Source: Escherichia coli (lineage in GTDB: Bacteria > Pseudomonadota > Gammaproteobacteria > Enterobacterales > Enterobacteriaceae). From it: a stretch of DNA of 64,000 nucleotides. The notes beneath the pieces are model-generated. The model ran no database searches. It worked only from the letters and a program-made list of their open reading frames with translations, and was not told where the DNA came from. The position numbers and the translations under genes were made by a program. Positions 8,456-52,966 of the stretch are shown here, piece after piece; position 1 is the first letter of the stretch, and the number at the start of each line of letters is the position of its first letter. The stretch lies in NCBI RefSeq assembly GCF_001677475.2, contig NZ_CP015229.1; one strand, 5' to 3'.

Positions 8456-11359
<2,904 letters not shown>

Positions 11360-19851: not shown

Positions 19852-19928
19852 GGAGCGGTAGTTCAGTCGGTTAGAATACCTGCCTGTCACGCAGGGGGTC
19901 GCGGGTTCGAGTCCCGTCCGTTCCGCCA
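19852..19928 (+). tRNA. aspV: tRNA-Asp (GTC); integration site of the downstream island
   Basis: 77-nt sequence identical to aspU; followed by a hairpin terminator. Confidence 0.97.
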
Positions 19929-21116: not shown

Positions 21117-22112
21117 TCAGTGCGCCAGGTAGTGTTCTGGTTCGAAAATCATGCCCGTCACCGGGTTTTCGTGCATGGCTTTACCCGCCCATGCGGTCCA
21201 GCCCAGTTGGTACGAACCACCGGTAACAGCCGGAGGGGCGGCGTGGGGCTTTAGCTGTAGCTCAATTTCCCAGCAGTATTCAAAACCGCTAAAGGAGCGG
21301 ACCAGTTCTGTCAGGACTGGCAGGTTATTGCCGCCAGGCAGAAAACGTCGGTAATCCTCCAGCGTCAGCGGGCCGATAACCAGCCGGAACTTATACTGCA
21401 TGTCCGGCACGGCCTGGCCGATGAGTGCACCGTTGCCAATAACGGAAGAGGGGGCTGGCATCCCCAGCCGGGTGATCTCATCGTCCGCCACGGCTATCCA
21501 GTGCAGGACATACTCCTGTATCCGGAAAGGTACACCGAAATAGTGCGCCAGCGTGGTGGCCAGACCGTCCGGATTGCGGGACTCACGCACCAGATGGGCC
21601 GATGCCGCCAGGCGAGCGTGATCCTGCAACGGGCTGTCGGCGCTCTCCCGCAAATCCTGCCCGCTGAGGCTGGCGATATAAAAGGCAAAACGGTCATGTT
21701 GCGGTTTATCCAGACCGCCCCCAGCGGACTGGGCGCTGCGCCATGCCTGGTAAAACTGCGTCAGCCAGCGGTGATGAAAAAGATCAGAAAAACGGGTTAG
21801 CGTCGGGTCTCTTCGGCTTTCAGTCCGGTTGTGCGCCAGTTCGGTGTAGTGCAGCGGCAGTGGACCGTTCGGCCCCCACAGCCCGAGACTGTACAAACTG
21901 ATATGCAGCCGCTCTTCCTGCCAGCTCACACTGGCGATTTCCCGTGGCGCAAAGGTCAGCGCGGGAGTTTGTCCGAGGCGAAATTTTTCCATCCGTGGTT
22001 GCCAGGTGTTGCCTGCCGGAACAGTACACAACTGCACATCCACGCGGCGCATCAGGTTCAGAAAACCGTAACGCCAGGGGGTTTCCTGCGCCTGAGTGAA
22101 ATCGTCGCTCAT
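21117..22112 (-). CDS. tssG: Type VI secretion baseplate protein TssG
   Basis: 331-aa ORF, 4-nt overlap with tssF; canonical tssE-tssF-tssG order. Confidence 0.8.
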   Translation of the reverse strand: MSDDFTQAQETPWRYGFLNLMRRVDVQLCTVPAGNTWQPRMEKFRLGQTPALTFAPREIASVSWQEERLHISLYSLGLWGPNGPLPLHYTELAHNRTESRRDPTLTRFSDLFHHRWLTQFYQAWRSAQSAGGGLDKPQHDRFAFYIASLSGQDLRESADSPLQDHARLAASAHLVRESRNPDGLATTLAHYFGVPFRIQEYVLHWIAVADDEITRLGMPAPSSVIGNGALIGQAVPDMQYKFRLVIGPLTLEDYRRFLPGGNNLPVLTELVRSFSGFEYCWEIELQLKPHAAPPAVTGGSYQLGWTAWAGKAMHENPVTGMIFEPEHYLAH

Positions 22113-23992
22113 ACGCTTCCCCGCTGTCCCGCCCTGGCAGGCCAGGTCATAATTTTGCCGCGCTGCATGCTGTGCAGCGTCATCTGCGAGAAGGTATTAA
22201 TGGAAACATGACGGGCGATATAGTGCTCCAACACCAGACCGAACAGATACGGACTGATACCGGAGAACCCCTCCTCATCCACGGTCAGTTCACAACTGAC
22301 GCCGCGCCCATAGACCAGCAGCCCGGAACCGGGCAGACGGCGGGTGACCGGGGTGGTGTTGCAGCCAATCAGGCTGCGCACCTGGCGCGACTGCGGACTG
22401 TCATGCGCCGGAATAAACAGGTTAAGCAGATCGCGCAGCGCCTGACCACCGGTACGGTGATCCAGATCGGCCAGCGGCAGATAGTTAAAGGATAACTGGC
22501 GGATCAACCGCCAGGCCATTTCACGTTCAGCCAGCGGAGGCTGCGGCGGACGCGGCGGACGGATAAGCCCCACGCCCGCCACCGGGATGGCCGCATCCAC
22601 GGTCAGATCGTCCCGTCCATTGCGGGCAATAAGACAGGGCAGATCGCGGTTGGTGACCATAGCCGTGATGGTGATATGGCGCAGATTTTCCGGGTATGGC
22701 GCTTCATACTGGTCAACCAGCGACAGGAACACTTCTGATCCTGTATAGGAGGTGCGGGTGCCATAGCGGCGGGCATTTTCCGACAACCGGCGCGGCTCCC
22801 GGCGCAGGGAAAAATAACGTCCGTGATTGCCTTCATCATTATTGCGGGTGTGGTAGAGCGGGCGAAAGGCCATCTTCCGTGTGGTGTCAGTTTCCAGCCC
22901 TTCCACTTCCTGGACCGAGAACACCTCATAATCCAGCGGATGGGTTCTGTCCACCACCAGATGCTGTTCCGTCGTGCTGTGCGTGACATCGATCCGGGCG
23001 GCGACTCGGGGAAACAGGTTGATAACCGGGGTACAGAACAGACTGAACTGTGCCGCGTTTGTCTGGTGGATCAGCCAGTCCGGCGGCAGGCGGTTCAGCA
23101 GGATAACAATCTCCGCCACTCCGCCTTCAATTTTCTGTAACCCGGCAGACAGGCCTGTCGGGGTGAAAAAAAAGAAGCGTTCCGGACAGGTAAAATATTC
23201 ATGTAGCAGGTTATGGCCGTGAAACACATTCCACGCCAGCGGCAACAGTCCCTGATCCGGATCCAGGCCTTCGTACATAACGGGCTGTTTCAGATTCACA
23301 TCCAGTGCGCCGTCAAAATGCCCCGGAATGCCAGCCAGGCTCGCGATGGCGCTGGTATGCAGTAGTTCGAACAGGTGTGAGGCCGTGCGCTCCTCGCCGC
23401 AGAGATAAAATGGTAGCTTGTTCAGCCCTGCAAGCTGACTGAACGTCAGTTCACCAAAGGTGCGCAGGGTAATACGCAGCGCACCAGCGACGTGAATGTT
23501 GGCTGGCAGGTAGCGGTGCAGGGCAGGCATATCCGGCGGCGCGGCGGTCAGGCGCACCTCTTCGATGGCAAGCGGCCACAGCGTCACATTCTGGCTGCTA
23601 CGAAACTGGCAGGCAGTACTTTCGCCTTCCGGAATGGCGGAAAAAAAGGCCGTGTTGCGCGGGACGGTGAATCCCTTCGCCAGATCGCCTTCTTCCGGAT
23701 CGGGATGAAGCTGCGCCACGCTCATTGAGGGCGTGGGTGTGACGTAATTGGGGCTGACCACTTCCAGCAGGCGCTGGGTGAAACGGGGGAATTCAGCGTC
23801 AATTTTTAGCTGCGTGCGGGCGGTCAGGAAGCTGAAGGCCTCGACCATTCGCTCCACATACGGATCGGCAATATCCGTTCCCTGCATACCCAGTCGGGCG
23901 GCGACTTTAGGATGACGGGCGGCAAATTCGGCTCCCGTTTCCCGCAGATAGCTCAGTTCGCGGTTGTAGTATTCCAGTAGCCGTGGATCCAT
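22109..23992 (-). CDS. tssF: Type VI secretion baseplate protein TssF
   Basis: 627-aa ORF; length and operon position. Confidence 0.85.
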   Translation of the reverse strand: MDPRLLEYYNRELSYLRETGAEFAARHPKVAARLGMQGTDIADPYVERMVEAFSFLTARTQLKIDAEFPRFTQRLLEVVSPNYVTPTPSMSVAQLHPDPEEGDLAKGFTVPRNTAFFSAIPEGESTACQFRSSQNVTLWPLAIEEVRLTAAPPDMPALHRYLPANIHVAGALRITLRTFGELTFSQLAGLNKLPFYLCGEERTASHLFELLHTSAIASLAGIPGHFDGALDVNLKQPVMYEGLDPDQGLLPLAWNVFHGHNLLHEYFTCPERFFFFTPTGLSAGLQKIEGGVAEIVILLNRLPPDWLIHQTNAAQFSLFCTPVINLFPRVAARIDVTHSTTEQHLVVDRTHPLDYEVFSVQEVEGLETDTTRKMAFRPLYHTRNNDEGNHGRYFSLRREPRRLSENARRYGTRTSYTGSEVFLSLVDQYEAPYPENLRHITITAMVTNRDLPCLIARNGRDDLTVDAAIPVAGVGLIRPPRPPQPPLAEREMAWRLIRQLSFNYLPLADLDHRTGGQALRDLLNLFIPAHDSPQSRQVRSLIGCNTTPVTRRLPGSGLLVYGRGVSCELTVDEEGFSGISPYLFGLVLEHYIARHVSINTFSQMTLHSMQRGKIMTWPARAGQRGSV

Positions 23993-32262: not shown

Positions 32263-32670
32263 ATGGCATATGTTTATGGACTGGTAGATTCATTACAGGG
32301 CACTGACATGGTGGGAATGGCGGGGGCAGGAGACAGAAAGGAATGTGTGTTCTTAGTTCAGGTATATGCACATGTGGGGAATACTGGAGCCTGGAAGCAG
32401 GGGCGAAAGGTTTTTGGGGATAAATCGATCCCCAGAGGAACAGCAATTGCCACTTTTGTTAACGGAAAGTATCCCTCGAGGCAGAATGAGCATAAGCATG
32501 CCGCTTTCTATCTGGAACAGGATAGTCAGTATATTTATGTTATGGACCAGTGGACAGGTAAAACCACGAAAGTCTCTGCACGCCCTATTTCCCGAAAAGG
32601 TGGAATGCGCAGCGATGGAACATATCCTGATGCCAGTAATAATGCGGAAGCTTTTTATATTATTGAGTAG
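32263..32670 (+). CDS. Small Cys/His-containing protein without signal peptide; candidate T6SS effector (possibly Tae2-like amidase)
   Basis: 135-aa AT-rich ORF between tssC and hcp; Cys in KECVFLV and His in EHKHAAFY; family assignment tentative. Confidence 0.4.
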   Translation: MAYVYGLVDSLQGTDMVGMAGAGDRKECVFLVQVYAHVGNTGAWKQGRKVFGDKSIPRGTAIATFVNGKYPSRQNEHKHAAFYLEQDSQYIYVMDQWTGKTTKVSARPISRKGGMRSDGTYPDASNNAEAFYIIE

Positions 32671-32682
32671 AGGATAGATTCA

Positions 32683-33135
32683 ATGGGAACACGTTTTATT
32701 TTTTCTCTGTTGTTGGGTTTTATGTTGTTTTATTCACCATTTGTTGCAGCGTGGGAAGTCAGTTGCCCCGTGTTTATCAATATAAAATCCTCAACAACAG
32801 TACTGGAGCCAGATATATCTGCATCGTGGCAGAGATCTTCCCGCTATGAACCCCGTCTGTGGTTGGACGGGGTAGGGATGTCGCAGGGAAAACCTGAAAA
32901 TCGGGTGGATCTAAAACCAGAGACAGAGACAATAAAGGGTGAAACCAGGCAAATATGGGATACCACAATGGCCAGTAATCAGAATAGTGAACGTTACTGG
33001 GTTTCCTGTATTTATAACCATGGACAGGTTTGGTTATCACAACCGGTCCCTGCATTGGCGACACAGTGCCAGGCATCTTCTTTGCCGGGGCAGCGGGTAC
33101 CAGGAGAGTCATCGGTATCTGTGACATGTAAATAG
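32683..33135 (+). CDS. Secreted Cys-containing protein; candidate immunity partner
   Basis: 150-aa ORF with N-terminal signal peptide (FSLLLGFMLFYSPFVAAWE), 12 nt after preceding gene. Confidence 0.4.
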   Translation: MGTRFIFSLLLGFMLFYSPFVAAWEVSCPVFINIKSSTTVLEPDISASWQRSSRYEPRLWLDGVGMSQGKPENRVDLKPETETIKGETRQIWDTTMASNQNSERYWVSCIYNHGQVWLSQPVPALATQCQASSLPGQRVPGESSVSVTCK

Positions 33136-34404: not shown

Positions 34405-35748
34405 ATGAGTTGGAATAACCGGGTGGTCTGGAGTGAAGGACAATTTTTGTTGCCACAGATGTTTCAGCAGCAGGAACGCTATCTGGAACATGTCATTCAT
34501 TATCGCAGTTTGCCTCTTTCACCTTTTTACTGGGGTTTCAATGAGTATGGTATTGGTAGTGAGGCGCTGAACATCGGAAAACTGGTACTTACGAAGGCTT
34601 CCGGGGTATTTGCTGACGGTACACCTTTTAATGCGCCGGGTCATACACCACTCCCGCCGCCGCTGACCATCCTTCCAGAACATCTTAACCAGTTGATTTA
34701 TCTGGCTGTGCCAATACGTACGCCGAACAGTGAAGAAACCAGTTTCGACAATAACCCTGAATCACTGGCACGTTTTTCGGTACATGAAAGTGAAATCCGT
34801 GATGCCAATTCGCTGGGGCGAGGCGCGCAACTGCTGCAACTTAGCCACCTGCGCTTGCGACTGTTACCGGAAAAGGCGGTGACAGACGCGTGGATCGGCC
34901 TGCCGCTGACGCGCATCACGGCGCTGCATCCCGATGGTCGGGTCGATATAGACAAAGAGTTGATCCCGCCAGTGGCGAACTACCAGGCCAGTACGCTGAT
35001 ATGTACCTGGCTGTCGTGGATTAACGATCTGATAAAAATGCGTGCAGATTCGCTGGCGGAACGATTGACGGGGAGCGACAAACACGGTCATGAAGCGGCG
35101 GAAGTGTCGGATTACCTGCTTCTGCAAGTTCTTAATCGTTTCGGCCCCTTATTGATCCATATGTCGAAAACGCCGCTATCGCCTGAAGTACTTTATCGTA
35201 ACCTCTGCGCACTGGCCGGAGAACTCTCTACCTACGTGCGTCCGCAAACACGTCGTCCGGAAGAATATAAAGAATATAAGCACCTGACGCCCTATGCCGG
35301 GCTGAAATCGGTGGTGGACGAGGTTCAGTATCTACTGAATGCTGTGCTAATACGTGGGGCGCAGCGAATCCCTCTGGAAGAGGGAACTTACGGTATTCTC
35401 AATGCGGTGGTTGAACCTACCGAACTGTCAGATTTCAGCTCGTTAGTATTGGCGGTGAAGGCACAGATGTCCGCCGACACCTTACTACAACATTTTTCGG
35501 CTCAGACCAAAATAGGGCCGTCAGAACGCCTGCCGGAACTGATTCGCTCGCACCTTCCTGGTCTTGTTCTACAGGTGCTGCCAGTGCCACCGCGTCAGAT
35601 CCCGTTCCAGTCCGGTTACATCTATTACGACATCCGCCGCGACGGCGTGTTGTGGGAACATATCGCCCGCTATGGTGGCATGGCAATGCATACCGCCGGA
35701 GAGTTTCCAGGGCTGGAGCTGGAGCTGTGGGGAGTTCGCGATAAATGA
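34405..35748 (+). CDS. tssK: T6SS baseplate protein TssK
   Basis: 447-aa ORF; position between tssJ and tssL. Confidence 0.88.
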   Translation: MSWNNRVVWSEGQFLLPQMFQQQERYLEHVIHYRSLPLSPFYWGFNEYGIGSEALNIGKLVLTKASGVFADGTPFNAPGHTPLPPPLTILPEHLNQLIYLAVPIRTPNSEETSFDNNPESLARFSVHESEIRDANSLGRGAQLLQLSHLRLRLLPEKAVTDAWIGLPLTRITALHPDGRVDIDKELIPPVANYQASTLICTWLSWINDLIKMRADSLAERLTGSDKHGHEAAEVSDYLLLQVLNRFGPLLIHMSKTPLSPEVLYRNLCALAGELSTYVRPQTRRPEEYKEYKHLTPYAGLKSVVDEVQYLLNAVLIRGAQRIPLEEGTYGILNAVVEPTELSDFSSLVLAVKAQMSADTLLQHFSAQTKIGPSERLPELIRSHLPGLVLQVLPVPPRQIPFQSGYIYYDIRRDGVLWEHIARYGGMAMHTAGEFPGLELELWGVRDK

Positions 35749-36464
35749 CCGACGATATTCTGACGCAACCTGCGGTGAATACCCTGCAATTACAGCCTTC
35801 AATGAGGGGAACAAGGTCGCCTGATAATGACGGTTACGATACGCTCGTCCAGGACAGCCTTCGCAGGGAAGATATAAAGGTGGTGGTTGAAGACGGGCCA
35901 GATTTGAAGCTCCGCTTGGCTGAGATCACTGCTGCTGTGAATCCTCTTCTGGCGGCGGCCAGCCCTCTGTTATGCGCGCTGGCGCAAATGCCCCGTGAAC
36001 TTTCCCCTGGTTTTGTCGAACATTATCGCGCCCTACTGGAGCGTGAAGTCCGCCGGTATCAGACGCTGTGCGACCAGGCAAACCTGCGCCGCGAACATGT
36101 GCTGGCGGTACGTTACTGCGTGTGCACGGCGCTGGATGAAGCTGCCAACAACACCGTCTGGGGGCGACGCGGTGTCTGGGCCGGGAAGAGCCTGCTGGTG
36201 ACTTTTCATGGCGAAAGTGAAGGCGGCATCAAGCTGTTTCAGATAATCGGGCGTCTGGCCGCCAGCTTCCAGGAGCACAGCGATGTACTGGAAATCATTT
36301 ACCACATTCTGGGACTGGGTTTTGAAGGCCGCTACAGTGTACGGCCTGACGGGCGTAAACAACTGGACGATATCCGCCAGCAACTGCTGACTCAACTGGT
36401 CCAGCGTCGCGATCCGATCACGCCGACGCTCTTGCCGGGTTTTGCCGGTGCCGTCAGTGGGTGA
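35745..36464 (+). CDS. tssL: TssL cytoplasmic DotU-like domain (239 aa), ends at in-frame TGA before its expected membrane anchor
   Basis: 4-nt overlap with tssK; no TM helix in this ORF; stop 36462..36464 immediately followed in-frame by ATG of the next ORF. Confidence 0.7.
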   Translation: MTDDILTQPAVNTLQLQPSMRGTRSPDNDGYDTLVQDSLRREDIKVVVEDGPDLKLRLAEITAAVNPLLAAASPLLCALAQMPRELSPGFVEHYRALLEREVRRYQTLCDQANLRREHVLAVRYCVCTALDEAANNTVWGRRGVWAGKSLLVTFHGESEGGIKLFQIIGRLAASFQEHSDVLEIIYHILGLGFEGRYSVRPDGRKQLDDIRQQLLTQLVQRRDPITPTLLPGFAGAVSG

Positions 36465-37061
36465 ATGCGGCGGATGCGCCGGGTGCCGGTCTGGCTGAGC
36501 GCCGGAATCGCCCTGCTGGTGATGCTGACGCTGTTTGGCCTTTACAGCCACCGGATGAACCTCGCCACCGAAACCGTACAACAGCGTATCGACGCCATTG
36601 GTAAAAATCTTCCGCCGCCACCCGTTCCGGTGCATAAACTGCGGTTGAAAATCCTGCTGGCGAACGAAATCGCCCGTGGCCTGCTGACGGTGGAGGAAGA
36701 TGACCATCACAGCCGTGTAATCTTTCGTGGCGATACGATGTTTATACCGGGGCAGAAAACCGTGAATGATGCGCTGCGCCCGGTGATTGACAAGGCCGCG
36801 CGTGAGATTGCGCGTGTGGGGGGCGCGGTGACGGTGACCGGCCACACGGACAGCCAGCCGATCCACTCCGCTGAATTCCCGTCCAACCAGGTATTGTCGG
36901 AAAAACGTGCGGCAGAAGTAGCTTCGCTGCTGACATCTGGTGGCGTTCCGGCTAGCCGAATTCGGGGTGTCGGTAAAGGGGATACTATGCCGGTGGCTGA
37001 TAATAGTACTAAAACTGGACGAGCGCAGAATCGCCGGGTGGAAATTCTGGTGGTGGAGTGA
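36465..37061 (+). CDS. TM helix plus OmpA/MotB-like peptidoglycan-binding domain (expected C-terminal part of a long-form TssL)
   Basis: 198-aa ORF; TM segment WLSAGIALLVMLTLFGLY then OmpA-like motifs (TGHTDSQP…NQVLSEKRA…NRRVEI). Confidence 0.7.
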   Translation: MRRMRRVPVWLSAGIALLVMLTLFGLYSHRMNLATETVQQRIDAIGKNLPPPPVPVHKLRLKILLANEIARGLLTVEEDDHHSRVIFRGDTMFIPGQKTVNDALRPVIDKAAREIARVGGAVTVTGHTDSQPIHSAEFPSNQVLSEKRAAEVASLLTSGGVPASRIRGVGKGDTMPVADNSTKTGRAQNRRVEILVVE

Positions 37062-37069
37062 ATTAATAA

Positions 37070-37755
37070 TGGAAAAGCTAGAGTGTAATGCGTCTAACCA
37101 TTCGCCAGTGTGGGGAGTAACAGAATTTATATTCTGGAAACTGGCGCCTAAAAAATGGGGGGGAGGCGTAGCATTTGGGCGTTATTTTAAAGATGGTTGG
37201 GTGAAGCATAACGGTCTTTTGATCAATGCAGCTGCAAATGCCTGGCATTTACCTGCCCCCTTACTTGCTGGAGTTTGTTGGATTGAAGTAGGGGGTGATC
37301 CTCAGATTATAGACACGCTGGCATTTGAATTTCGTGCTATGAGTTGGAGTGGGCCTGAATGGGTTGATGAACATATCACAATCGCTTCGAAACCAGAAAA
37401 AACTTCTTTTGGTGCGGTGAGTATGCAATTGCGAACTGCAGCCAGAACACTCGGGCTTGATGAGACTAAAATGGACAACTCTCAGTTGCGTGAGCTGGCA
37501 AATTGTCTCCAGCATGATGTGTTTAATATACAATTAGCTGCAAGACATCTTTATCAATTGGCTGAAAAAGATGGTTTTCAGGTATCCTTACCTCACCTGA
37601 CAAAAGAACAAATAAGAATTATTGGAGCTCGTTATAATCGAGGTGTTTCCCTTAGTCTGGAAAAAATAAAGGAAGATACCAGCTATGGCGATTTTATTAT
37701 AAATAACTGGTTACATTTCTCTAGTTTATTAATAACTACCTGGAAGTCTTCATGA
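37070..37755 (+). CDS. Lysozyme-like / lytic-transglycosylase-like protein without signal peptide; candidate Tge-type effector or T6SS-associated murein hydrolase
   Basis: AT-rich; start MEKLECN chosen after OmpA ORF stop (track 36940 start overlaps it); motifs CWIEVGG, FGAVSMQL, IGARYNRG resemble GH23 E…S / GLMQ / AYN-G. Confidence 0.4.
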
Positions 37756-38039
37756 GAAAAATAATTCAGATATCAGGGTGGTTATTATTTATTATGGGAT
37801 TGGTCACTATCATGCTTTTTTCCGGGAGTGAGTACCAGTGGATGCAGGATATGGACCCTTCAATAACAGCATTACCTCAGGGAAACGGAAATAGAGATGT
37901 AATCAGAAAATTAATTTATTCTATTTCAGTGGCTATTCAGATTGTTCTTTATTTTCTTTCAGTATCGCGTACAGGAAAGGGATTTTCAGCCCTGGGTATT
38001 TTGCTATTACTGATTACCGCATGGAGCTCTGAACAATAA
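37752..38039 (+). CDS. Small two-TM membrane protein; candidate immunity
   Basis: 95-aa ORF coupled (ATGA) to the upstream gene; hydrophobic segments WLLFIMGLVTIMLF and LGILLLLITAW. Confidence 0.4.
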   Translation: MRKIIQISGWLLFIMGLVTIMLFSGSEYQWMQDMDPSITALPQGNGNRDVIRKLIYSISVAIQIVLYFLSVSRTGKGFSALGILLLLITAWSSEQ

Positions 38040-41000
38040 TGCAAAAATTTCTCAGTCTGCTGTTTTCCCGCCGCACACTGGCCGTTGTCGGCGTGGTGGT
38101 GCTGGCGTTGCTGGTCTGGTTTATCGGGCCGCTGGTGGCGTTTGACACCTTGCATCCGCTTGCGTCCGTGGGTAGCCGGGTAGTCACTATCGTTCTGTTA
38201 CTGATGTTCCTTGCACTGTGGCTGGTTAACTGGTCGATGAGCATCATTGGCGTTACGGTTCTGTGCCTGGTTATCGGCTTTGTCTCACCGTTGCTGGCCT
38301 TCGGTGATGTTTATCCATTTGCGCCGCTGTGGCTGCGTCTGACGCTTATCGGCCTGATCCTTCTGTCTTATACGCTGTATGGCCTGTACCGATTGTGGCG
38401 GGCGCTGCGTCTGGATGAACAACTGCTGCGCCGTTTCCTGCATCCGCGCGGGGAAGATGTTCCGGTGGCAGGGGAAATTAAAGCCGACTTACGCACCGTC
38501 AGCCATATTGTCACTCGCGCTATTCGGCAACTGAAGCAACTGCGCGTAGACCTGCCGGGTTGGCGTAAGGTGCTGGAAGGAAAGCGTTTTCTGTACGAAC
38601 TGCCGTGGTTCATGGTTATCGGCAGCCCCGGTGATGGTAAAACTACCGCGCTGCTTAACACCGGGCTACAGTTTCCGCTGGCGGAGCAGATGGAGCAGAC
38701 CGCGCATATCCTTACCGTGCCGGGCGGCGGCACGCTGCACTGCGACTGGTGGTTCACCAACGAAGCGGTGCTCATTGACACTGCCGGGCGCTATGCCCGC
38801 CACGATGACGGCGGTGAAATCAGTGCGACCCAGCGCAACGCCGGGGAATGGCAGGGGTTTCTGGGACTGCTGCGTAAACACCGTCCCGGCGCACCGCTGA
38901 ACGGCGTTATCCTGACGCTAAACGTGGCGGATCTGACCGCGCAGTCCCCGGCGGAACGACTGGCTGCCTGTGCGGCTTTGCGTGCGCGGCTGGCTGAACT
39001 GCGTGAGACGCTGGGTATTCGTTTCCCGGTTTATCTGGTTGTCACTAAGATGGATCTGCTGCCGGGCTTTACGGAGTATTTCCGTGGGCTGACCAGTCAC
39101 CTGCGTGCCCAGGTCTGGGGCTTCACCCTGCCATACAGCCGCAGGCGTCACGCCAGCGATCCGCAGTCGTTGCATGCGCTCTGTGGCCAGGAACTGGCAA
39201 ATCTGACGCTGCGGCTGGATCAGGGGCTGGATACCCGGTTGCAGGAAGAGTACGACCTTAAAAGCCGTCAACGGCTCTACCGCTTTCCGCGCGAATTTGC
39301 CGCGCTGGGCGCGCCGCTGCTGGAAGCCATTGAACAGATTTTCCTCGATTCAAAATTTGACGCCACTCAGCTTAACAACACCCTACGCGGCGTATTTTTT
39401 ACCAGCGCCGCACAGGCGCAGGCAGACGCGGTGGCCGATCAGACGGGCATCTGGCAGCGCTTTGTCCGGGCGATCAAAGGGAAAGTGGAGTCACCTTCTC
39501 ATACCTTACCGGACGGCAACCGCAGCTATTTTCTTCATGACCTACTGACCCAGTTTATCTTCCGTGAAGCACACCTGGTGGAGCCGAATCTTCAATGGGC
39601 CTGGCGTTATCGCCTGCTGCGTACTGGCGGGCATCTGCTGGTACTAGCGTTGGCTTTCTGGTTGTGGCAGGGAATGCAGGGCAGCCAGCAGGGTAACAGC
39701 GGCTATCTGAATGAAATCGCCAGCCGGACGGTCCAACTGGATGGTGACGTCAAAGCCTATACCGGAAAACCTGCTATGCAGCCTGTCCCAGTCCTGTTGA
39801 ACCAGGCGCGGGCGCTCTCTGCCTGGCCGGGGCTGGACCCGGACTCACCGCCGCTGGCCTGGCGTTATGGTCTTTACAGCGTTCCGCCAGTAATGGAGAG
39901 CGTCGCATCCCTGTATGACCGTCTGCTGGACCAGCTCCTATTGCCGCCACTGGTGAAGCGCATGGAATATGTGCTTTCAGATGCCATTGCTCGTCAGGAC
40001 AGCAAAGCCGCGTATGACGCTCTGCATGTTTATCTGCTGCTGAATCTTGATAAAGACCACGAGGACAAATACAACGCAGCGGAGATCCACGCCTGGGTAC
40101 TGAACGATCTGGAAAACCGCGATAGCGTGGCGGAGTTCGGCGGCCGTGCAGCAGTGCTGGAACATATCGACGCCCTGTTTGACGGCAGCCGTGTGGTGCA
40201 TTCGCCTTATGACAAAGATGAGGGACTGATCCGCATGGCGCGGGCTTTCCTTGACGGTCATACCAGCACCGAGCGTATCTATACTCGAGCCCTGGCTTCC
40301 ATGGAGAGCGAAGCACCGCAGGAGTTTTCGCTGGTTCGCGCGGTGGGCGCGGATGCGGGGACGGTTTTTGTCCGCACGGATGGCGCGCCACTGGATAGGG
40401 GCGTGCCCGGCATCTTTACTCGCGAAGGCTACCGGGAACTGTTCGACAAACGGCTGTCGGAGTTTGTCGCCTCCGCATCAGCGGACGACGCCTGGGTAAT
40501 GGGCCGGGAAAACGCGCAAAAAAAAACGACTGATATTGTGATGAGCCAGTTGCCGGGGCAGGAACTCCCGGTTACCCGTGAGGTACGCCGCCTGTATCTG
40601 GCTGAATATGCCCGCCGCTGGCAGGATTTTCTGGCTAGTATTCACAGCATCAACAGTGCCGGGGAAGACGGTAGTCCCGGACTGGCGTATGACCTTCAGG
40701 TGCTTCGCACACTGGCCTCGCCTGACTCACCTCTGATGCGCCTGAGTAAAGCGGTGGTGGAGCAGACCACGCTGGTACCGCCGCTGGATGCGCAGGCCAG
40801 ACAAAAACAAATGGCCCAGCGCGCGCAGGACCGGCTCTCCGGTAATGCGGGTAAAGCAGTGCAGACGGCAAAGCTGTTGCAGGATATCCACCCGGAAGAG
40901 CGGCTGGAAAAATCGCTGGTGGATGACCGTTTCGCCGCTCTGCGGGAAGTGGTTTCCGGGCGGACGGACAGTGGACAGGGGGGCGGGGCGCCGCAGTTAA

Positions 41001-41905
41001 ATTCGCTGCTGACAATGCTCAATGAGTATTACACCCAGCTCACCATCGCCGACAGTGCATTGGCAGCGAGCACATTACCGGGCCGCATTTCGGCGGCGGA
41101 TAAACTACAACTGGAAGCGGCAAAACTGCCCGCACCGCTGAAAAATATTCTGCTGGATCTCACGCAGCAGGGAACGCGAAAGATCAACGCCGGCACCGGT
41201 GAAGTGCTGAACGCGCAGATGGAGGCGGTGATCGGTGATGAGTGCCGTGACGCCATTGACGGGCGCTATCCCTTCACCGACAGCCCGCAGGAAGTCAGCG
41301 CGGACGATTTTAACCGTATCTTTGCTAGCGGCGGTGTGCTGGATGCCTTCTGGACGAAGCAACTGGCCCCGCTGGCGGATACCGCCAGCAACCCGTGGCG
41401 ATACAAACCGACCGAAGGCAACATGACTTTACAGGGGCCGGACCTGACGCCGTTTCAGGAGGCGAAACAGATCCGCAGCGTGTTTTTTAACGGCGACGGC
41501 GGGAAAAAGTTCTCCTGGGCGATGCAGGTCCGCGTCGTGGATATGGACCCGGCCATCACCGAACTGGTGATTGACATTGACGGCCAGGTACTGCGTTACG
41601 CTCACGGCCCGGTCAGGCCGCTGAAAGTGAACTGGCCGGGTCCGCGCAACGGCTCAATGGCGGAAATAACCGCCAGCCCGCGCATCCGCCAGGACACCTC
41701 GACGCTGCTGACTAATGGACCGTGGGCGCTGTTTCACCTGCTGGATGCGGGAAAAGCGCAAGAAACGGCGGTACGGGGAATACAGCAGGTGGAGTACAGC
41801 TTTGACGGGCGGCGGGTGATACTGGAAATCACCGCCGGACGGGATTTTGACCCAGTGGATCGCGGACTATTGCAACTCTTCGCCTGCCCGGAGCGAGCGC
41901 TGTGA
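38039..41905 (+). CDS. tssM: T6SS membrane complex protein TssM (IcmF)
   Basis: 1288-aa ORF; N-terminal TM helices; Walker A GSPGDGKTT. Confidence 0.92.
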   Translation: MQKFLSLLFSRRTLAVVGVVVLALLVWFIGPLVAFDTLHPLASVGSRVVTIVLLLMFLALWLVNWSMSIIGVTVLCLVIGFVSPLLAFGDVYPFAPLWLRLTLIGLILLSYTLYGLYRLWRALRLDEQLLRRFLHPRGEDVPVAGEIKADLRTVSHIVTRAIRQLKQLRVDLPGWRKVLEGKRFLYELPWFMVIGSPGDGKTTALLNTGLQFPLAEQMEQTAHILTVPGGGTLHCDWWFTNEAVLIDTAGRYARHDDGGEISATQRNAGEWQGFLGLLRKHRPGAPLNGVILTLNVADLTAQSPAERLAACAALRARLAELRETLGIRFPVYLVVTKMDLLPGFTEYFRGLTSHLRAQVWGFTLPYSRRRHASDPQSLHALCGQELANLTLRLDQGLDTRLQEEYDLKSRQRLYRFPREFAALGAPLLEAIEQIFLDSKFDATQLNNTLRGVFFTSAAQAQADAVADQTGIWQRFVRAIKGKVESPSHTLPDGNRSYFLHDLLTQFIFREAHLVEPNLQWAWRYRLLRTGGHLLVLALAFWLWQGMQGSQQGNSGYLNEIASRTVQLDGDVKAYTGKPAMQPVPVLLNQARALSAWPGLDPDSPPLAWRYGLYSVPPVMESVASLYDRLLDQLLLPPLVKRMEYVLSDAIARQDSKAAYDALHVYLLLNLDKDHEDKYNAAEIHAWVLNDLENRDSVAEFGGRAAVLEHIDALFDGSRVVHSPYDKDEGLIRMARAFLDGHTSTERIYTRALASMESEAPQEFSLVRAVGADAGTVFVRTDGAPLDRGVPGIFTREGYRELFDKRLSEFVASASADDAWVMGRENAQKKTTDIVMSQLPGQELPVTREVRRLYLAEYARRWQDFLASIHSINSAGEDGSPGLAYDLQVLRTLASPDSPLMRLSKAVVEQTTLVPPLDAQARQKQMAQRAQDRLSGNAGKAVQTAKLLQDIHPEERLEKSLVDDRFAALREVVSGRTDSGQGGGAPQLNSLLTMLNEYYTQLTIADSALAASTLPGRISAADKLQLEAAKLPAPLKNILLDLTQQGTRKINAGTGEVLNAQMEAVIGDECRDAIDGRYPFTDSPQEVSADDFNRIFASGGVLDAFWTKQLAPLADTASNPWRYKPTEGNMTLQGPDLTPFQEAKQIRSVFFNGDGGKKFSWAMQVRVVDMDPAITELVIDIDGQVLRYAHGPVRPLKVNWPGPRNGSMAEITASPRIRQDTSTLLTNGPWALFHLLDAGKAQETAVRGIQQVEYSFDGRRVILEITAGRDFDPVDRGLLQLFACPERAL

Positions 41906-42151: not shown

Positions 42152-42847
42152 ATGCAACAATATACGCGTTTTTTTATTATTTTTTTGTTATATGCCATGT
42201 CAGGAAATGTTTTTGCTGATATCAGAAAAAACACAGGAACTATTGACCCCGATTATATTAATCTCAGTGCGCAGGAATTTTTGTCATTTTATGCTCGTGG
42301 AACGTCACAGGAAAAAGAAAATGTTCTGATGTATGTCCTTGGTGTGAGTGATGCGACAGAAAGTAAAACCTGGTGTGGATATAATAAGATTAATGAAATA
42401 GAACTTTATTCATCGGTACTGACATATCTTAATCAGCAGTCGGTTAACGATATGAATATGCGAGCTTCAACTCTGATTGAACAAGCGATGGTCAGGCTGT
42501 TTCCCTGCCCGGATATGGCATCACCGGAAAAAAAATCTCCCCGGCAGTCATCTGTTTCACACCTGACCTCTGGCGCGTTCGATCTGAACGGAGATGATTT
42601 TTTCCGCTTCTGGCAGTCAGATAACAGGCAGGATAGGCTTAATGCGAAAATCTATCTTTTGGGTATAGAAGATGCCACGGAAAGAAAAACATGGTGCGAT
42701 TATAAAACGATTAAAACAGTTACACTGGATGAGATTATTTACTGGTATTTCAGAAAAAAAACGTCAGATAAACTGAATGAACGGGCTGCAAATATTATTA
42801 TTGAGGCACTAAGTAAACACTCCTGTGATAAAGGAAATAATAAATGA
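42152..42847 (+). CDS. Secreted protein with two tandem homologous domains; candidate immunity for Tae4
   Basis: 231-aa AT-rich ORF; signal peptide (FFIIFLLYAMSGNVFA); internal repeat (…VLMYVLGVSDATESKTWCGYNKI… vs …IYLLGIEDATERKTWCDYKTI…). Confidence 0.4.
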   Translation: MQQYTRFFIIFLLYAMSGNVFADIRKNTGTIDPDYINLSAQEFLSFYARGTSQEKENVLMYVLGVSDATESKTWCGYNKINEIELYSSVLTYLNQQSVNDMNMRASTLIEQAMVRLFPCPDMASPEKKSPRQSSVSHLTSGAFDLNGDDFFRFWQSDNRQDRLNAKIYLLGIEDATERKTWCDYKTIKTVTLDEIIYWYFRKKTSDKLNERAANIIIEALSKHSCDKGNNK

Positions 42848-43320
42848 AACCTTCATTTTTCACACTTAAAAAAAAACATTACTCATCAGTTCAGATTGAT
42901 GGTGATGTTTTGTACAGTGAAGTGGGTTATAACTATGAAGCACTGCAACAGCAAAATGCTGGTTATGTAAATACCTGTGCCACACGTATGAGTCTGGCGC
43001 TGATTAAATCAGGCGTCAGCTTTAACGGGCGACTGACGATCAAAAGTGGTGACTGGAAAGGGAAGAAAATAGAAACCGGTGCGAAATTACTGGCAGATCA
43101 GCTTTCCCGAGCTGATGTTTTTGGAAGACCAGTTATCTGGTGTGACTCAGAAAAATTTAAAACAGACACCAGTAATAAAAGAGGAGTGGTCTTTTTCTGG
43201 AAGATTACGGGTTACGGTGGCGGTCATATTGATCTTATTGAGCCTTCTACCACAGGTGCTATATGTCATTCACATTGCTATTTTAGCTGCAAGGAAATCT
43301 GGTTCTGGGAACTGAATTAA
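42844..43320 (+). CDS. tae4: Tae4-family T6SS amidase effector (peptidoglycan D-Glu-mDAP amidase family)
   Basis: 158-aa ORF, ATGA-coupled; Cys45 in NTCATRMSLAL and His128 in GGGHIDLIE, then CHSHCYF, as recalled for Tae4; no signal peptide. Confidence 0.6.
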   Translation: MKPSFFTLKKKHYSSVQIDGDVLYSEVGYNYEALQQQNAGYVNTCATRMSLALIKSGVSFNGRLTIKSGDWKGKKIETGAKLLADQLSRADVFGRPVIWCDSEKFKTDTSNKRGVVFFWKITGYGGGHIDLIEPSTTGAICHSHCYFSCKEIWFWELN

Positions 43321-43505: not shown

Positions 43506-44276
43506 GTGATGCGCCGGGCAGAGATATCGGCCCCGGCGATGTTCGGCAGACTGCCGGACCAGCGGGACTATGTGCGCTGGCGGGTGAGCGCGAACGAAGG
43601 GCAGGTGTGGCAGGCGTGGCTGAACCAGCAAACGTGGCTGGGACAGGGGCGGCATATTGTTCTGCCGGAAGGAACGGATGCTGCGAAGACCGGAGTAAAT
43701 GACGGTTGGATGCACCTGTCACCGAGCGAGAAAACGGCGGTGCCGGAACACCATCCGCTACCGTGGAGCTTTGTATTATCGCCGGGATTTTTATCCATTG
43801 GTGGGCGCGATGAGTGGCTGACCGGGGTACTGACCGCCTCGCGTGACAGCACGGGCAGGCCGTGGCCGCTGGTGATTTACCAGCGTGCCGGACGGGAATG
43901 GCTGGAAGAGAGTCTGGATGAAACGCAAGGCTGGCTGTACTGGCTGGCAAGACTGGCGGCAGTACATGTCTCACCACAGACAGAACGCTGCGGGCGGCTG
44001 GCGGAGCAGGCAGACCAGCTGTGGGCGATGTGGCGACCGGGGCCGCGCTGGGCGCAGTGGTTGCGTGGTTTGCGGCGTGTACCGCAGCGCAGCCGGGAAC
44101 TCACCGGCCTGCCGGACGCACCGGTAGTGGAACTGCCCGGCGTGCGGCACCTGCCGTGGCCGGGCTGGCCGGACAAAATGCTGACGCAGGCACAACAAGG
44201 GCAGGGCTGGTTCTGGCAGCAGAACAGCGAGGGGCGGTATGTGGATGCGCTGCGGCTGACGGGGCAATCCTCATAA
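43506..44276 (+). CDS. tagF: T6SS-associated protein TagF (ImpM/DUF2094)
   Basis: 256-aa GC-rich ORF; N-terminal FGRLPDQRDYV resembles TagF F(Y)GKLPxxGDF motif. Confidence 0.55.
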   Translation: MMRRAEISAPAMFGRLPDQRDYVRWRVSANEGQVWQAWLNQQTWLGQGRHIVLPEGTDAAKTGVNDGWMHLSPSEKTAVPEHHPLPWSFVLSPGFLSIGGRDEWLTGVLTASRDSTGRPWPLVIYQRAGREWLEESLDETQGWLYWLARLAAVHVSPQTERCGRLAEQADQLWAMWRPGPRWAQWLRGLRRVPQRSRELTGLPDAPVVELPGVRHLPWPGWPDKMLTQAQQGQGWFWQQNSEGRYVDALRLTGQSS

Positions 44277-44342: not shown

Positions 44343-45044
44343 ATGACCAAGCTTAAATATGATGAAAACGGCCTGCTAGCAGAATACTATGCAAAAACAG
44401 ATATTGACGGTGATGTCATCACTCACAAAGATGACAGAATGACGTATTTATTAAATAAAAATACTGGCTCTATTTCTGTAGTGATAAAGTGGAAGTATGA
44501 GTGGTATAAGGATAATACCGTTACAGATGACTGGACTGTATTGGAAAAAGCTATTTTCATGAGATCAGTATATTTATCTGTTCAACAGGCATGGAATGGG
44601 AAAATAACTTATTCTGTTTCCGGTGAATCTGAGTTCGCTAAAAAATTTCAGGGGAAAGCTTTGCCTTTTGATGTGAGGATAATCCCTGTATCTCAGAATG
44701 AAGACTGGTTGGTAATTGCAACTAAAGTTTTGCCTGGTGCTGATTTAAGAACGTATGTTGATTTTAAGAACAGCACGGTTCATGTTGACTCAGCAGACCT
44801 GGAAAAAGTAGCAAAATGTTTTAATTGTAACAATACAGTGCAAATAAATATACCACATGAAGCCGGACATGTACTTGGTTACTTAGATGATGATTATGAT
44901 TCTTCGTCTCCGTATGTTGGAGATGTTAGTGGGCTGATGAATATGGGAATGGAACTCCGGGAAAGATATCTTAAAAACTCAACTATAACGTTGAATGTAA
45001 TAATGCCTGATACTAACTTCACTCTATTGAATGTAACCAAATGA
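44343..45044 (+). CDS. Putative zinc metallopeptidase toxin (HExxHxxGxxD motif), no signal peptide; candidate T6SS effector
   Basis: 233-aa AT-rich ORF; HEAGHVLGYLDD; immediately upstream of vgrG. Confidence 0.5.
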   Translation: MTKLKYDENGLLAEYYAKTDIDGDVITHKDDRMTYLLNKNTGSISVVIKWKYEWYKDNTVTDDWTVLEKAIFMRSVYLSVQQAWNGKITYSVSGESEFAKKFQGKALPFDVRIIPVSQNEDWLVIATKVLPGADLRTYVDFKNSTVHVDSADLEKVAKCFNCNNTVQINIPHEAGHVLGYLDDDYDSSSPYVGDVSGLMNMGMELRERYLKNSTITLNVIMPDTNFTLLNVTK

Positions 45045-45427
45045 AATTAATCTGTATTATAGTGTTCTTTCTTTCAATAAATTACGTAATCACAGCAAAT
45101 GTTTTCGAGCCTTCTGTAGTTTTTCAATCTCCCAGGTATTATGAGGAAAATGATATACAGAATGGAAATAACGATGCTTTTTTTGTGAAAAAATACGGCC
45201 CGCCTGTTCATGAGTTCATGAAGCCACGATATAAGTTTGCCGGTGAATATTATATCGGCTTGAATCAGACTTATCGCATCACAAACCCTGAATTTAAAGA
45301 TGTGCCTATTAAAGAAATGTTCTGGAATCTGCAAGAGGATTTAAATCTTACATGCTGGTTCCATTATAAAGACGGGCAGTGGCGGGTTATTTCTTATATT
45401 TTTTGGCCACCAGGGGCTAAATTTTAA
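45041..45427 (+). CDS. Secreted small protein, candidate immunity for the metallopeptidase
   Basis: 128-aa ORF, ATGA-coupled; N-terminal signal peptide (MKLICIIVFFLSINYVITANVF). Confidence 0.45.
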   Translation: MKLICIIVFFLSINYVITANVFEPSVVFQSPRYYEENDIQNGNNDAFFVKKYGPPVHEFMKPRYKFAGEYYIGLNQTYRITNPEFKDVPIKEMFWNLQEDLNLTCWFHYKDGQWRVISYIFWPPGAKF

Positions 45428-45451: not shown

Positions 45452-47665
45452 ATGAGTTTTGTATCTACGGGTAATAAACCAGTTGGAAACGGTAGACCCG
45501 TCATCACCACACCACCAATAGCTCGCGAAAGTGGCGGTATGAGCGCAAGTTCAGCCGCAACCGATGTAGCTGATGCAGCCGAACAGATGGCAGAACAGGC
45601 AGTTGCAGATCTATTTGGTGCGCTTCCAGAACCGTCAGGACTGGTTAAAGCTGCAGTAGCTGCTGCGCAGGCCGCCGCCGCCGCGGCAGGGATCTCGGAT
45701 ATGGCTGGTGCAGCTCAGGATGCGGCGGCATCGCTTGCTGCCGCTGGTTCGGGGGCGCATAACGTCACAGTAAGTGGTAGTGCGGTGCCGGCGCAGATGC
45801 TGCTGTTCGCAGGTATGAATGGTTCGGAAGGGCTTGGGAATCTGTTTTCCTATACAGTACAGCTTAAAACGCCTGACACCCTGAACCTCGGATATGTCTC
45901 CCCTGCTGCCAATCTGCCGCTCAAACCGATGGTGGGCAAAGACCTGTGCGTCAATATTGAACTGGAGGGCGGCGGCAAACGGCATATCAGCGGGCTGGTG
46001 ACGGCTGCGAGGGTAGTCGGTCACGAGGGGCGCTCGGTCACGTATGAATTGCGCATTGAACCGTGGTTGAAGCTGCTGACCCACACCAGCGACTACAAAG
46101 CCTTCCAGAACAAAACCGTGGTGGATATTCTCGATGAAGTCCTGGCTGAATATTCCTTTCCGGTGGAAAAGCGGCTGGTGGAAAATTATCCGCCCCGCGC
46201 CTGGCAGGTGCAGTATGGTGAAACCGATTTTGATTTCATCCAGCGCCTGATGCAGGAATGGGGTATCTACTGGTGGTTTGAGCACAGCGAGAACAGCCAC
46301 ACGCTGGTACTGGCTGATGCCATCAATGGTCATAAAACGTGCCCGGACTCGCCGCTGGTAGAGTGGCACCAGGAAGGACTGAAGCTCGATAAGGAATTTA
46401 TCCACACCATTACGGCCAGTGAGAGGCTGCGTACTGGAAAGTGGGTGCTGGACGATTTTGATTTTATGAAGCCGCGTTCACTGCTGAAAAGTACCGTGGC
46501 TAATCCGCGTGATACCGGTCATGCTGAATATGAGCATTACGAATGGCCTGGTGATTACTTCACTATGGGGGAAGGCGAGATGCTGACGCGCATTCGTATG
46601 GAAGCGCAGCGCAGCCCTGGCAGCCGGGTTGGAGGGGCGGGGAATATCCGCACCCTCATGACTGGTTACACCTTTACGTTGATGAATCATCCGACGGCGG
46701 AGGTCAACCAGGAATATCTGCTGGTGCAGACCACACTGTTTTTACGGGACAATGCGCAGTACAGCGGCCAGGACCAGCATTTTACCTATGTCACCACGTT
46801 CGAACTGCACCCTACCAGTGAAGTCTACCGCCCACAGCGAACCCTGAGCAAACCTCATACCAAAGGCCCGCAGAGCGCCATCGTCACCGGTCCGGCGGGG
46901 CAGGAAATCTGGACGGATAAATATGGCCGGGTGAAGGTGCAGTTTGGCTGGGATCGTTATGGTAACAATGACGAAAACAGCTCCTGCTGGGTCCGTGTTA
47001 GCTATCCGTGGGCGGGAAAAGGATTCGGCATGATCCAGATCCCGCGTATTGGCCAGGAAGTGCTGGTGGATTTCAAAAATGGTGACCCGGATTTACCCAT
47101 CATCGTGGGGCGTACCTATAACCAGGACACGATGCCGCCGTGGGGATTGCCTGGCATGGCGTCGCAGAGCGGGATATTCAGCCATTCGTTACAGGGGGGG
47201 CCGACCAACGGAAACATGCTGCGCTTTGATGACAAAACGGGGGCGGAAGAGGTGAAGTTCCATGCGGAAAAAGACCTCAATACCACAGTAAAAAACAATG
47301 AAACCCACACGGTCATGGTCGATCGCACAAAAACCATTGTCAAAAATGAAACCATCAGCGTGGGAGAAGACCGTAATGCCACCATCACAAACAATGATGG
47401 GCTTTCCGTCAAACTAGCTCAAACCATCAATGTCGGGACGACATATCGTCTGGACGTTGGCGAGCAATTTACCCTTCGCTGCGGCAATGCAGCGCTTGTA
47501 TTACACAAGGATGGCTCGATTGAGTTTTGCGGAAAACAACTTTTACTGCACGCCAGCGATGTGATGCAACTCATTGGCAGTGGTATTGATATGAATCCGG
47601 ATGGCGGAAAAGCCATTACTGCGAATGATATTGCCCCAGTACCCACTCCGGATGCTTCTGAATAA
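45452..47665 (+). CDS. vgrG: T6SS spike protein VgrG (TssI) with ~100-aa Ala-rich N-terminal extension
   Basis: 737-aa ORF; RBS aaggag before ATG 45452; canonical VgrG region begins near residue 105 ([34 protein letters not shown]). Confidence 0.88.
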
Positions 47666-47688: not shown

Positions 47689-48132
47689 ATGACCAGCCTT
47701 TACCGTATTCAGGAGGGCAGCTTTGCCCTGCCTGAAACTTTTCTTGATCGCACCGTCAATATCTTCGTCCCGTCGGGCAATGAGAGGGCAACTCCCAGTC
47801 TGAATATTTCCCGCGACACGCTCAGGCCCGAGGAAAACCTGACCACCTACATTGACCGCCAGATAGCCTTGATGAAAAAAAACCTGGGTCAGCACCGGGT
47901 ACTTTCGCGGGGAACGGCAGTGGCGGGAACTGGCGAAGCTGCCATGGCAGGTGAACAAATTCTCGCAACTCACCGTTCTGGAAAAACAGAAGTGTATCAG
48001 CGTCAGGCCGGGTTTATCACCGGGCCAGGAAAGGTTCTGGTGTTAACCCTGACCTGTCAACGTCCTTTTGATGAGCATACTGACCAGCTATGGACTGTCT
48101 GGTTGACCAGTTTTCAGCCCGCTAAGAGTTAA
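47689..48132 (+). CDS. eagR: DUF1795-family Eag chaperone (EagR-like) for the downstream prePAAR-Rhs effector
   Basis: 147-aa ORF between vgrG and rhs; size and position typical of Eag chaperones. Confidence 0.6.
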
Positions 48133-48137
48133 AATAA

Positions 48138-52623
<4,486 letters not shown>

Positions 52624-52672: not shown

Positions 52673-52966
52673 TTAATTATCGTTCAGCATACTAAACATC
52701 CCGTCACGCATCCCCTTAACCGCCTGTTTGACCTGGTAAAGTTCCCTGCGCAGTTCCTGTACTTCGTTGTTATCCGCTAGCAGGATCAGGCAACCTTCCG
52801 AGATCTTCACGGTAACGCCCGTGCCGATCTCAAATCCCGCTTCTCTCAGCCATTTGGCGCTGATTTTGATCACCGGCGTGTCGCTGCGGTTGGGCAGATA
52901 GCCCACGGTACAGTGGCGCTGTGTTTTGGAAATGGTGACTTCTGGCGTAATATCGTGTTCAGCCAT
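52673..52966 (-). CDS. SymE-family (AbrB-fold) type I toxin-like protein
   Basis: 97-aa ORF; RHCTVGY…ISAKWLREAGFEIGTGVTVKISEGCLILLA parallels recalled SymE (RHVTVGY…[31 protein letters not shown]). Confidence 0.6.
   Translation of the reverse strand: MAEHDITPEVTISKTQRHCTVGYLPNRSDTPVIKISAKWLREAGFEIGTGVTVKISEGCLILLADNNEVQELRRELYQVKQAVKGMRDGMFSMLNDN

Follow-up and report, generated by a model that had tools for sequence, protein, structure and literature searches.

We report here that two overlapping genes in a 64,000-nucleotide stretch of the Escherichia coli contig NZ_CP015229.1 (assembly GCF_001677475.2; the window, hereafter, means this whole stretch) probably form an antibacterial effector-immunity cassette of a type VI secretion system (T6SS), whose target is likely to be periplasmic and probably linked to peptidoglycan. 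The effector adds a new member, specific to E. coli, to a family of candidate effectors that is uncharacterised. The two genes and the genes that bound them are the following:

44343 to 45044, plus strand: candidate effector gene, 233 amino acids, 26.5 kDa; candidate T6SS cargo, predicted zinc peptidase of metzincin fold
45041 to 45427, plus strand: candidate immunity gene, 128 amino acids, ATGA-coupled to the effector gene; Sec-type N-terminus (residues 1-19)
43506 to 44276, plus strand: tagF (TIGR03373 TagF, E = 4e-10), left edge of the variable slot
45452 to 47665, plus strand: vgrG, 737 amino acids, right edge of the slot; presumed effector carrier

An original prediction, made from the nucleotide sequence, had described a 233-residue and a 128-residue open reading frame (ORF) joined by an ATGA just upstream of vgrG, and these coordinates proved exact. 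The ATGA at 45041-45044 contains both the stop codon of the effector ORF and the start codon of the partner ORF, and vgrG starts 24 nucleotides downstream of the partner's stop, giving the order tssM-tai4-tae4-tagF-pair-vgrG-eag-rhs. The description of the effector gene as AT-rich also held: its guanine-plus-cytosine (GC) content is 35.9% and that of the partner gene 35.4%, compared to 64.9% in tagF, 59.4% in tssM and 53.9% in vgrG. Similarly low values were seen in other cargo of the same island (38-40% in tai4/tae4, 35% in the C-terminal toxin region of the Rhs gene). Annotations of E. coli relatives place the vgrG product in the Vgr family, and it is 93-94% identical in the related loci L001-L003. 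A promoter and terminator scan yielded nothing bearing on the pair above shuffled expectation.

Two sequence features of the 233-residue protein bear on its assignment to the zinc peptidases:

44856 to 44897, plus strand: zinc-binding signature HEAGHVLGYLDDDY, residues 172-185, with H172, E173, H176, G179, D183, D184 and Y185
44937 to 44939, plus strand: candidate Met-turn methionine M199, within SGLMNMG, judged by conservation in 127 homologues

The window motif HEAGHVLGYLDD fits the extended metzincin pattern HExxHxxGxx(H/D), with its conserved aspartate at +11, as in M64, and not at +10. We aligned 127 homologues, down to about 22% identity, and found that H172, E173 and H176 are invariant in all of them; the HExxH sequence is therefore not a chance match, and its conservation, which the original prediction had left to be checked, is confirmed. 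The residues that follow are nearly as constant: D183 is kept in 125 of the 127 sequences, glutamate or aspartate at position 184 in 126, and Y185 in 123, with G179 kept in 87 of 116 aligned homologues. Position 199 is methionine in 106 homologues and leucine in 15, inside a conserved S-[IL]-M-N-x-G segment, and further conserved positions are N200 (107), G202 (125), R206 (112) and R208 (122). The family can thus be described by the signature HEFGHxxG-x(n)-DEY-x8-D-xx-S-[IL]-M-N-x-G-xx-[LV]-R-x-R-H. In enterobacterial members, a pair of cysteines lies just before the active-site helix.

Database searches placed this signature outside the known families. Neither protein of the pair had a significant match in Pfam, NCBIfam, PADLOC or PDB sequences; the only Pfam hit of the effector was DUF7445 (E = 0.34), and the specific families snapalysin (M7), Reprolysin/adamalysin (M12B), IgA peptidase (M64) and matrixin (M10) gave no significant profile match. 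When the profile of the effector family was compared with the PDB, the best entry was 3p1v, an M64-like protein (E = 0.059), whose motif HEFGHSFGGLADEY aligns with that of the family. A structure model built from the 127-sequence alignment reached a predicted local distance difference test score (pLDDT) of 93.6 and a predicted template modelling score (pTM) of 0.88; an earlier model from a 7-sequence alignment (pLDDT 34.8) was discarded. The model contains a long helix (residues 66-84), a beta-sheet, the motif helix (169-177) with the loop after it, and a C-terminal helix (207-220). Foldseek ranked matrix metalloproteinase 1 (MMP-1), karilysin and ADAMs on top among PDB entries, as weak matches. 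In AFDB50, proteins of the same fold were found with template modelling (TM) scores of 0.8-0.86 at 22-30% identity, nearly all of them uncharacterised, from Sphingomonas, Tenacibaculum, Sorangium, Sulfitobacter, Bacteroides, Stieleria and others. The original prediction had likened the motif to that of snapalysin-like metzincins: the metzincin fold class is borne out by the model; against snapalysin itself, the family profile gave no significant match (E = 1.6). Taken together, residue conservation and a confident model make the metzincin assignment well supported, and on the modelled fold the effector is a member of a separate, distant metzincin-type family outside the curated peptidase families.

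A word-indexed search with the effector gave eight close clusters, 78-100% identical, in E. coli, Citrobacter farmeri and Enterobacter, and repeating it with the family profile recovered few distant members. When the profile was run exhaustively against 1.84 billion cluster representatives, it gave 206 clusters at E ≤ 1e-3, counted at 50% identity, and 86 at E ≤ 1e-10, mostly of 200-290 amino acids.

The second gene of the pair has the properties expected of a periplasmic immunity gene. We called signal peptides by hydropathy and by inspection of N-terminal patterns. The effector N-terminus is hydrophilic, with the first 15-residue Kyte-Doolittle windows all negative and no hydrophobic segment, in agreement with the earlier view that the protein lacks a signal peptide. 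The partner is most hydrophobic at residues 3-17 (maximum 2.73), with ITA|NV next in the sequence, and the same pattern recurs in homologous partners (e.g. SFA|Q, IFA|S); its reading as an exported, Sec-type protein is thus upheld by the same inspection. A partner homologue was found behind every enterobacterial effector homologue examined, and the two proteins diverge together, as seen in their identities to the window pair:

Escherichia sp. E1V33: effector 88% identity, partner 79%
Enterobacter ENT03: effector 80% identity, partner 71%
Salmonella Okatie, first module: effector 49% identity, partner 71%
Salmonella Okatie, second module: effector 45% identity, partner 57%
Locus L010: effector 42% identity, partner 58%
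E. coli 2014C-3338: effector 39% identity, partner 52%
Citrobacter amalonaticus: effector 36% identity, partner 59%

All partners combine a variable hydrophobic N-terminus with a conserved C-terminal portion of about 85 residues, the last of which are FWPPGAKF. We counted 50 clusters of the partner family at 90% identity, from Escherichia, Salmonella, Citrobacter, Enterobacter and Hafnia, and database searches returned neither a Pfam domain nor a PDB relative for this family. Furthermore, in a metagenomic locus where the effector shares just 26% identity with the window protein, the next ORF was matched by the partner profile (E = 4.7e-6, small database). Behind other distant members lie unrelated small ORFs, for instance a lipoprotein-like ORF of 116 amino acids in L011. 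The proposed pairing of the effector with an exported, immunity-like protein is therefore backed by co-inheritance and co-divergence across the enterobacterial loci and by one metagenomic pair, and this co-variation supports a cognate immunity role for the partner.

We then examined how the pair is distributed. All enterobacterial loci examined carry a complete T6SS cluster with the pair placed between its tagF and vgrG genes, a slot that we saw in E. coli, Escherichia sp., Enterobacter, Citrobacter and Salmonella; six loci beyond the window place it in this variable position adjoining vgrG, so that the association with vgrG, which remained to be checked across genomes, was found to be general among them. 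A search of species-representative genomes with an 8-sequence alignment gave three related loci. Nucleotide homology to E. coli 2014C-3338 stops at 44258, at the end of tagF, and restarts at 45210, in the conserved half of the immunity gene; these breakpoints imply that the effector gene and the variable half of the immunity gene are exchanged as a unit. In other strains, the slot holds a glucosaminidase-domain gene with a partner, or two tandem modules of the effector family. Tandem modules were found in L002, L003, L004 and L019, each module with its own partner. Module borders are marked by remnants of the tagF 3' end and, in L002, L003 and L005, also of the vgrG 5' end: a vgrG remnant together with a 109-bp tagF remnant separates the tandem modules of L002 and L003, and in L005 a vgrG remnant lies ahead of the module. 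In L004, the first effector is cut down to its last 80 or so codons beside an intact immunity gene. The remnants of the vgrG 5' and tagF 3' ends map as follows:

L002: 6772-6880 and 8212-8985
L003: 3908-4016 and 5412-5610
L005: 6652-6747
L019: 5219-5278

Among 5426 complete E. coli genomes, 34 carry the gene of the 233-residue subfamily (about 89% nucleotide identity), and truncated effector fragments are common among E. coli and Shigella flexneri entries (clusters at 90% identity). These results demonstrate that the pair is a polymorphic, horizontally exchanged cassette that leaves orphan immunity genes behind. Two further observations concern the flanks of the slot. The vgrG 5' remnants and the tagF 3' remnants of 60-109 bp stand beside the tandem modules of other genomes as if modules were added by recombination through these flanks, and the 5' end of the window vgrG (45452-45780) encodes an alanine-rich extension, some 110 residues long, that precedes the canonical gp27-like start.

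This behaviour bears on two other roles that the gene might have. A protease directed against eukaryotes or the host, followed by a gene that has nothing to do with immunity, would not be expected to show strict co-inheritance and co-divergence with an exported partner, tandem modules each carrying a partner of their own, or a partner retained after its effector has decayed, and we consider such a protease very improbable. The gene might instead encode a housekeeping enzyme or a T6SS accessory, comparable to Acinetobacter TagX, that makes an opening in the peptidoglycan of the producing cell so that the machine can assemble. Its location inside a T6SS cluster and the existence of relatives with peptidoglycan-binding domains are compatible with this role. 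However, the protein has neither a signal peptide nor a membrane anchor to bring it to its own periplasm, it occurs in 34 of the 5426 E. coli genomes only while other genes fill the slot elsewhere, and the low GC content, cassette structure and dedicated exported partner would be out of place; given how the gene is distributed and that no export signal is present, we rejected a TagX-like role as scarcely credible.

We favour an antibacterial cassette, which would work in the following way. The 233-residue protein, made in the cytoplasm and devoid of a signal peptide, would be exported by the T6SS, most likely on the VgrG encoded 24 nucleotides downstream, and delivered into the periplasm of neighbouring Gram-negative cells. 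There it would act as a zinc-dependent hydrolase of metzincin fold, with H172, H176 and D183 as putative zinc ligands, E173 as the putative general base and M199 as the predicted Met-turn beneath the metal site. Its substrate would be an envelope component, with the peptides of peptidoglycan, or a component attached to peptidoglycan, as the most probable choice. In the periplasm of sister cells, the Sec-exported partner would bind the enzyme and block it.

Part of the case for this site of action comes from distant homologues. Scanning 77 family members one by one for domains, we found LysM in three, PG_binding_1 in one and an OmpA-like domain in one; in those sequences that we inspected, the fused domains are N-terminal and the proteins lack signal peptides. 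AFDB relatives likewise include proteins annotated as LysM- or peptidoglycan-binding-domain proteins. These fusions place the family at the cell wall and, considered with the exported partner, the cysteine pair and an effector without a signal peptide, suggest that the target is likely to be periplasmic and probably linked to peptidoglycan. All structurally related enzymes, however, are proteinases that act on polypeptides, which makes a wall-tethered protein a serious alternative: the same pair could comprise a true protease of a periplasmic or outer-membrane protein, such as Lpp, an OmpA/Pal-type tether or a protein of cell-wall synthesis. Peptidoglycan-binding fusions would suit attack on such tethered proteins equally well, and the VgrG2b metallopeptidase acts in the periplasm by mechanisms that a later paper calls unclear. 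Neighbouring variable slots in clusters of this type, on the other hand, are dominated by effectors that target peptidoglycan (Tae4, Tlde1, Tge2), and we regard a protein substrate as possible, though doubtful. Equally tentative is a broader proposal that the family is a new class of peptidoglycan-directed hydrolases on a metzincin scaffold, delivered without a Sec signal by the T6SS and perhaps by other routes across Proteobacteria, Bacteroidota and Myxococcota, and neutralised by an immunity fold without known relatives, perhaps through its invariant C-terminal tail (...FWPPGAKF).

Some distant members, too, have T6SS or toxin genes as neighbours. In L011, ORFs with weak VgrG matches lie downstream, followed by genes for a GH-E toxin, an ankyrin protein and Imm70, and P0052 lies between ImpE/TagJ and TssE; most contigs of distant homologues are shorter than 3 kb and uninformative for context. 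L023 carries, at 9001-9633, a 210-residue member; its contig is Planctomycete-like, and the genes on either side of the member encode PSCyt/PSD and HXXSHH domains.

Several observations weigh against the antibacterial, peptidoglycan-directed reading. At four conserved positions, the window protein has a residue other than that of the family consensus (D for H at 121, Y for H at 209, G for S at 197 and A for F at 174). The peptidoglycan-binding fusions speak to location and not to substrate, and to our knowledge the known peptidoglycan peptidases are not metzincins, so that peptidoglycan cleavage would be unusual for the fold. The argument for an immunity role of the partner is a genetic one, and the literature searched contains no report of secretion, toxicity or a substrate for the family. 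On the L023 contig, there are no T6SS genes nearby and no obvious partner; the wider effector family is thus not exclusively linked to the T6SS, and this member suggests another delivery route or role in a Planctomycete-like lineage. Lastly, tssL of the window strain (35745-37061) is interrupted in frame: a TGA stands at 36462-36464 in place of the CGA of E. coli 2014C-3338. The stop divides the long-form TssL into a 239-residue cytoplasmic DotU part and a 198-residue membrane/OmpA-like part, and the T6SS of this strain may therefore be inactive and the cassette undelivered.

The last point raises the prospect that the cassette is real but undeployed in this strain, either as a relic or as a gene pair kept for immunity against attackers that carry the same effector. 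The truncated effector fragments in E. coli and Shigella clusters and the orphan immunity gene of L004 agree with such a fate, as does the tssL stop itself. Both ORFs of the pair, however, are intact and full length; moreover, the ATG directly after the tssL stop is the start of the 198-residue piece, so that the two TssL pieces might still be made, and the TGA could be a sequencing error. Weighing these points, we judge the undeployed state to be unlikely, although well short of negligible, and retain the antibacterial effector-immunity cassette as the probable interpretation.

The island that houses the pair lies downstream of tRNA-Asp (19852-19928) and is an aspV-linked, SPI-6-like T6SS island. 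The first 6 kb of the window, with proS and metNIQ, share 99% identity with E. coli chromosomes. The genes of the island run tssH, tssB, tssC, hcp, tssJ, tssK, tssL and then tssM (38039-41905), and downstream of vgrG it continues with:

47689 to 48132, plus strand: DcrB/Eag-like chaperone gene, from the annotation of homologous E. coli loci; Pfam DcrB in the Salmonella locus
48153 to 52295, plus strand: PAAR-Rhs effector gene, from the annotation of homologous E. coli loci; Pfam PAAR and RHS in the Salmonella locus

Several other cargo-like elements were seen in the island. Between tssC and hcp (32263-33135, plus strand), genes for a BPSL0067-family protein of 135 amino acids and an STY0301-family protein of 150 amino acids follow each other and probably form another small effector-immunity pair. 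Between tssL and tssM, an AT-rich pair (37069-37755 and 37752-38039, plus strand; 41% and 37% GC) encodes a 228-residue protein and a hydrophobic 95-residue protein. Neither has an NCBIfam match, nor does the 228-residue protein have one in Pfam; this slot is the place of Tlde1 and its immunity gene in E. coli 2014C-3338, L010 holds a similar pair of 224 and 95 residues (weak DUF2645), and the window genes are possibly another uncharacterised effector-immunity pair. At 42152-43320 (plus strand), a 231-residue immunity gene of the Rap1a/Tai family overlaps and precedes the gene for a 158-residue Tae4-family amidase effector; their products share 98.7% and 99.4% identity with the counterparts in an E. 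coli relative, from which the annotation is taken. The C-terminal toxin region of the Rhs gene (51900-52623, plus strand), about 130 residues after the RHS core at 34.6% GC, is overlapped by a 111-residue ORF at 32% GC. An NCBIfam search of this region and its ORF gave no match beyond the Rhs core, and together they look like an unclassified Rhs toxin and its immunity gene. At the distal island edge, just before yafV-like, ivy-like and fadE-like genes, a 97-residue ORF (52673-52966, minus strand) matches the endoribonuclease SymE (E = 1.8e-12, below the curated cut-off). In addition, ARAGORN reports a 94-nucleotide tRNA-His at 22233-22326 (minus strand) within a 627-residue ORF (22109 to 23992), probably a false positive.

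T6SS effectors decide the winners of contact-dependent fights between strains in the gut, and each enzymatic activity newly found among them identifies a point at which the bacterial envelope is vulnerable. Knowing the substrate of this family would show whether metzincins can attack peptidoglycan or a particular protein of the envelope, and would give a function to widespread hypothetical proteins of E. coli, Shigella, Salmonella, Citrobacter and Enterobacter. In public data, the family numbers no fewer than 206 clusters at 50% identity, and in Enterobacteriaceae it occupies a hot-swappable slot beside vgrG. If it does hydrolyse peptidoglycan, it would add a sixth or seventh enzymatic way in which the T6SS breaks the cell wall, and a new activity for metzincins. 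The practical gain is modest because this kind of system is well known, and we see its interest, which is moderate, mainly in the substrate and the immunity fold.

The claim that the family was undescribed did not survive comparison with published work. Blondel et al. 2023 (PMC10469887) listed in silico two 243-residue cargo candidates in variable region 2 of Salmonella pathogenicity island 6 (SPI-6), a 'Reprolysin_4' protein (SESEF3709_03438) and a 'Peptidase_M64' protein (NCTC7411_03656), bicistronic with immunity proteins of 84-144 amino acids that bear a signal peptide or a transmembrane segment. A 2026 study (PMC12994826, S2 Table), citing Blondel 2023, lists 'STox_19, metallopeptidase, cargo, antibacterial'. 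The 'amidase' label given to the Salmonella candidates was drawn from weak domain matches (PMC10469887, PMC12994826). In the SPI-6 locus of Salmonella serovar Okatie, the order is tssM, tagF, tgi2P, a 243-residue protein, a 144-residue protein, an insertion sequence (IS), a second 243-residue protein, a 120-residue protein, vgrG, dcrB and rhs; both 243-residue proteins keep HExxH...D[ED]Y and share the tagF-vgrG slot with the window pair, and in Pfam one has a weak Reprolysin_4 match and the other none. Judged by size, position, species, immunity length and domain match, and not by the published sequences, the Okatie proteins are very likely the candidates of PMC10469887; matched by description and not by sequence, the family is probably STox_19 of PMC12994826. 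Since these Salmonella homologues had already been catalogued, an undescribed family is unsupported. Their independent listing in silico as candidate effectors also speaks in favour of the effector-immunity reading. The window pair resembles them in sequence (45-49% identity), in slot and in its homologous partners (57% and 71% identical in Okatie); it differs in that the E. coli protein belongs to a distinct 233-residue subfamily annotated as 'hypothetical protein'.

Among characterised systems, the metzincin clan offers for comparison the adamalysins/ADAMs (M12B), snapalysin (M7), igalysin/IgA peptidase (M64), MMPs (M10) and astacins. Within the T6SS, Pseudomonas aeruginosa VgrG2b carries a C-terminal metallopeptidase domain and has an immunity protein (Wood et al. 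2019, PMC6899460); like the candidate described here, it is a zinc-metallopeptidase effector with HExxH, and it is toxic in the target periplasm. VgrG2b, as well as Rhs-MPTase4, Rhs-M91 and a VgrG-gluzincin, these three described in Shiga toxin-producing E. coli (STEC), Enterobacter, Salmonella Dublin and structural-bioinformatics papers, were considered and set aside as other proteins, not members of the window family. In its organisation, the pair resembles Tae4-Tai4 and Tlde1-Tldi1, which also pair a small, AT-rich effector devoid of a signal peptide with an immunity protein of the periplasm and occupy variable slots of this type of island. It differs from both in fold, Tae4 being a papain-like amidase and Tlde1 an L,D-transpeptidase, and from the Tae4 pair also in gene order, as there the immunity gene precedes the effector.

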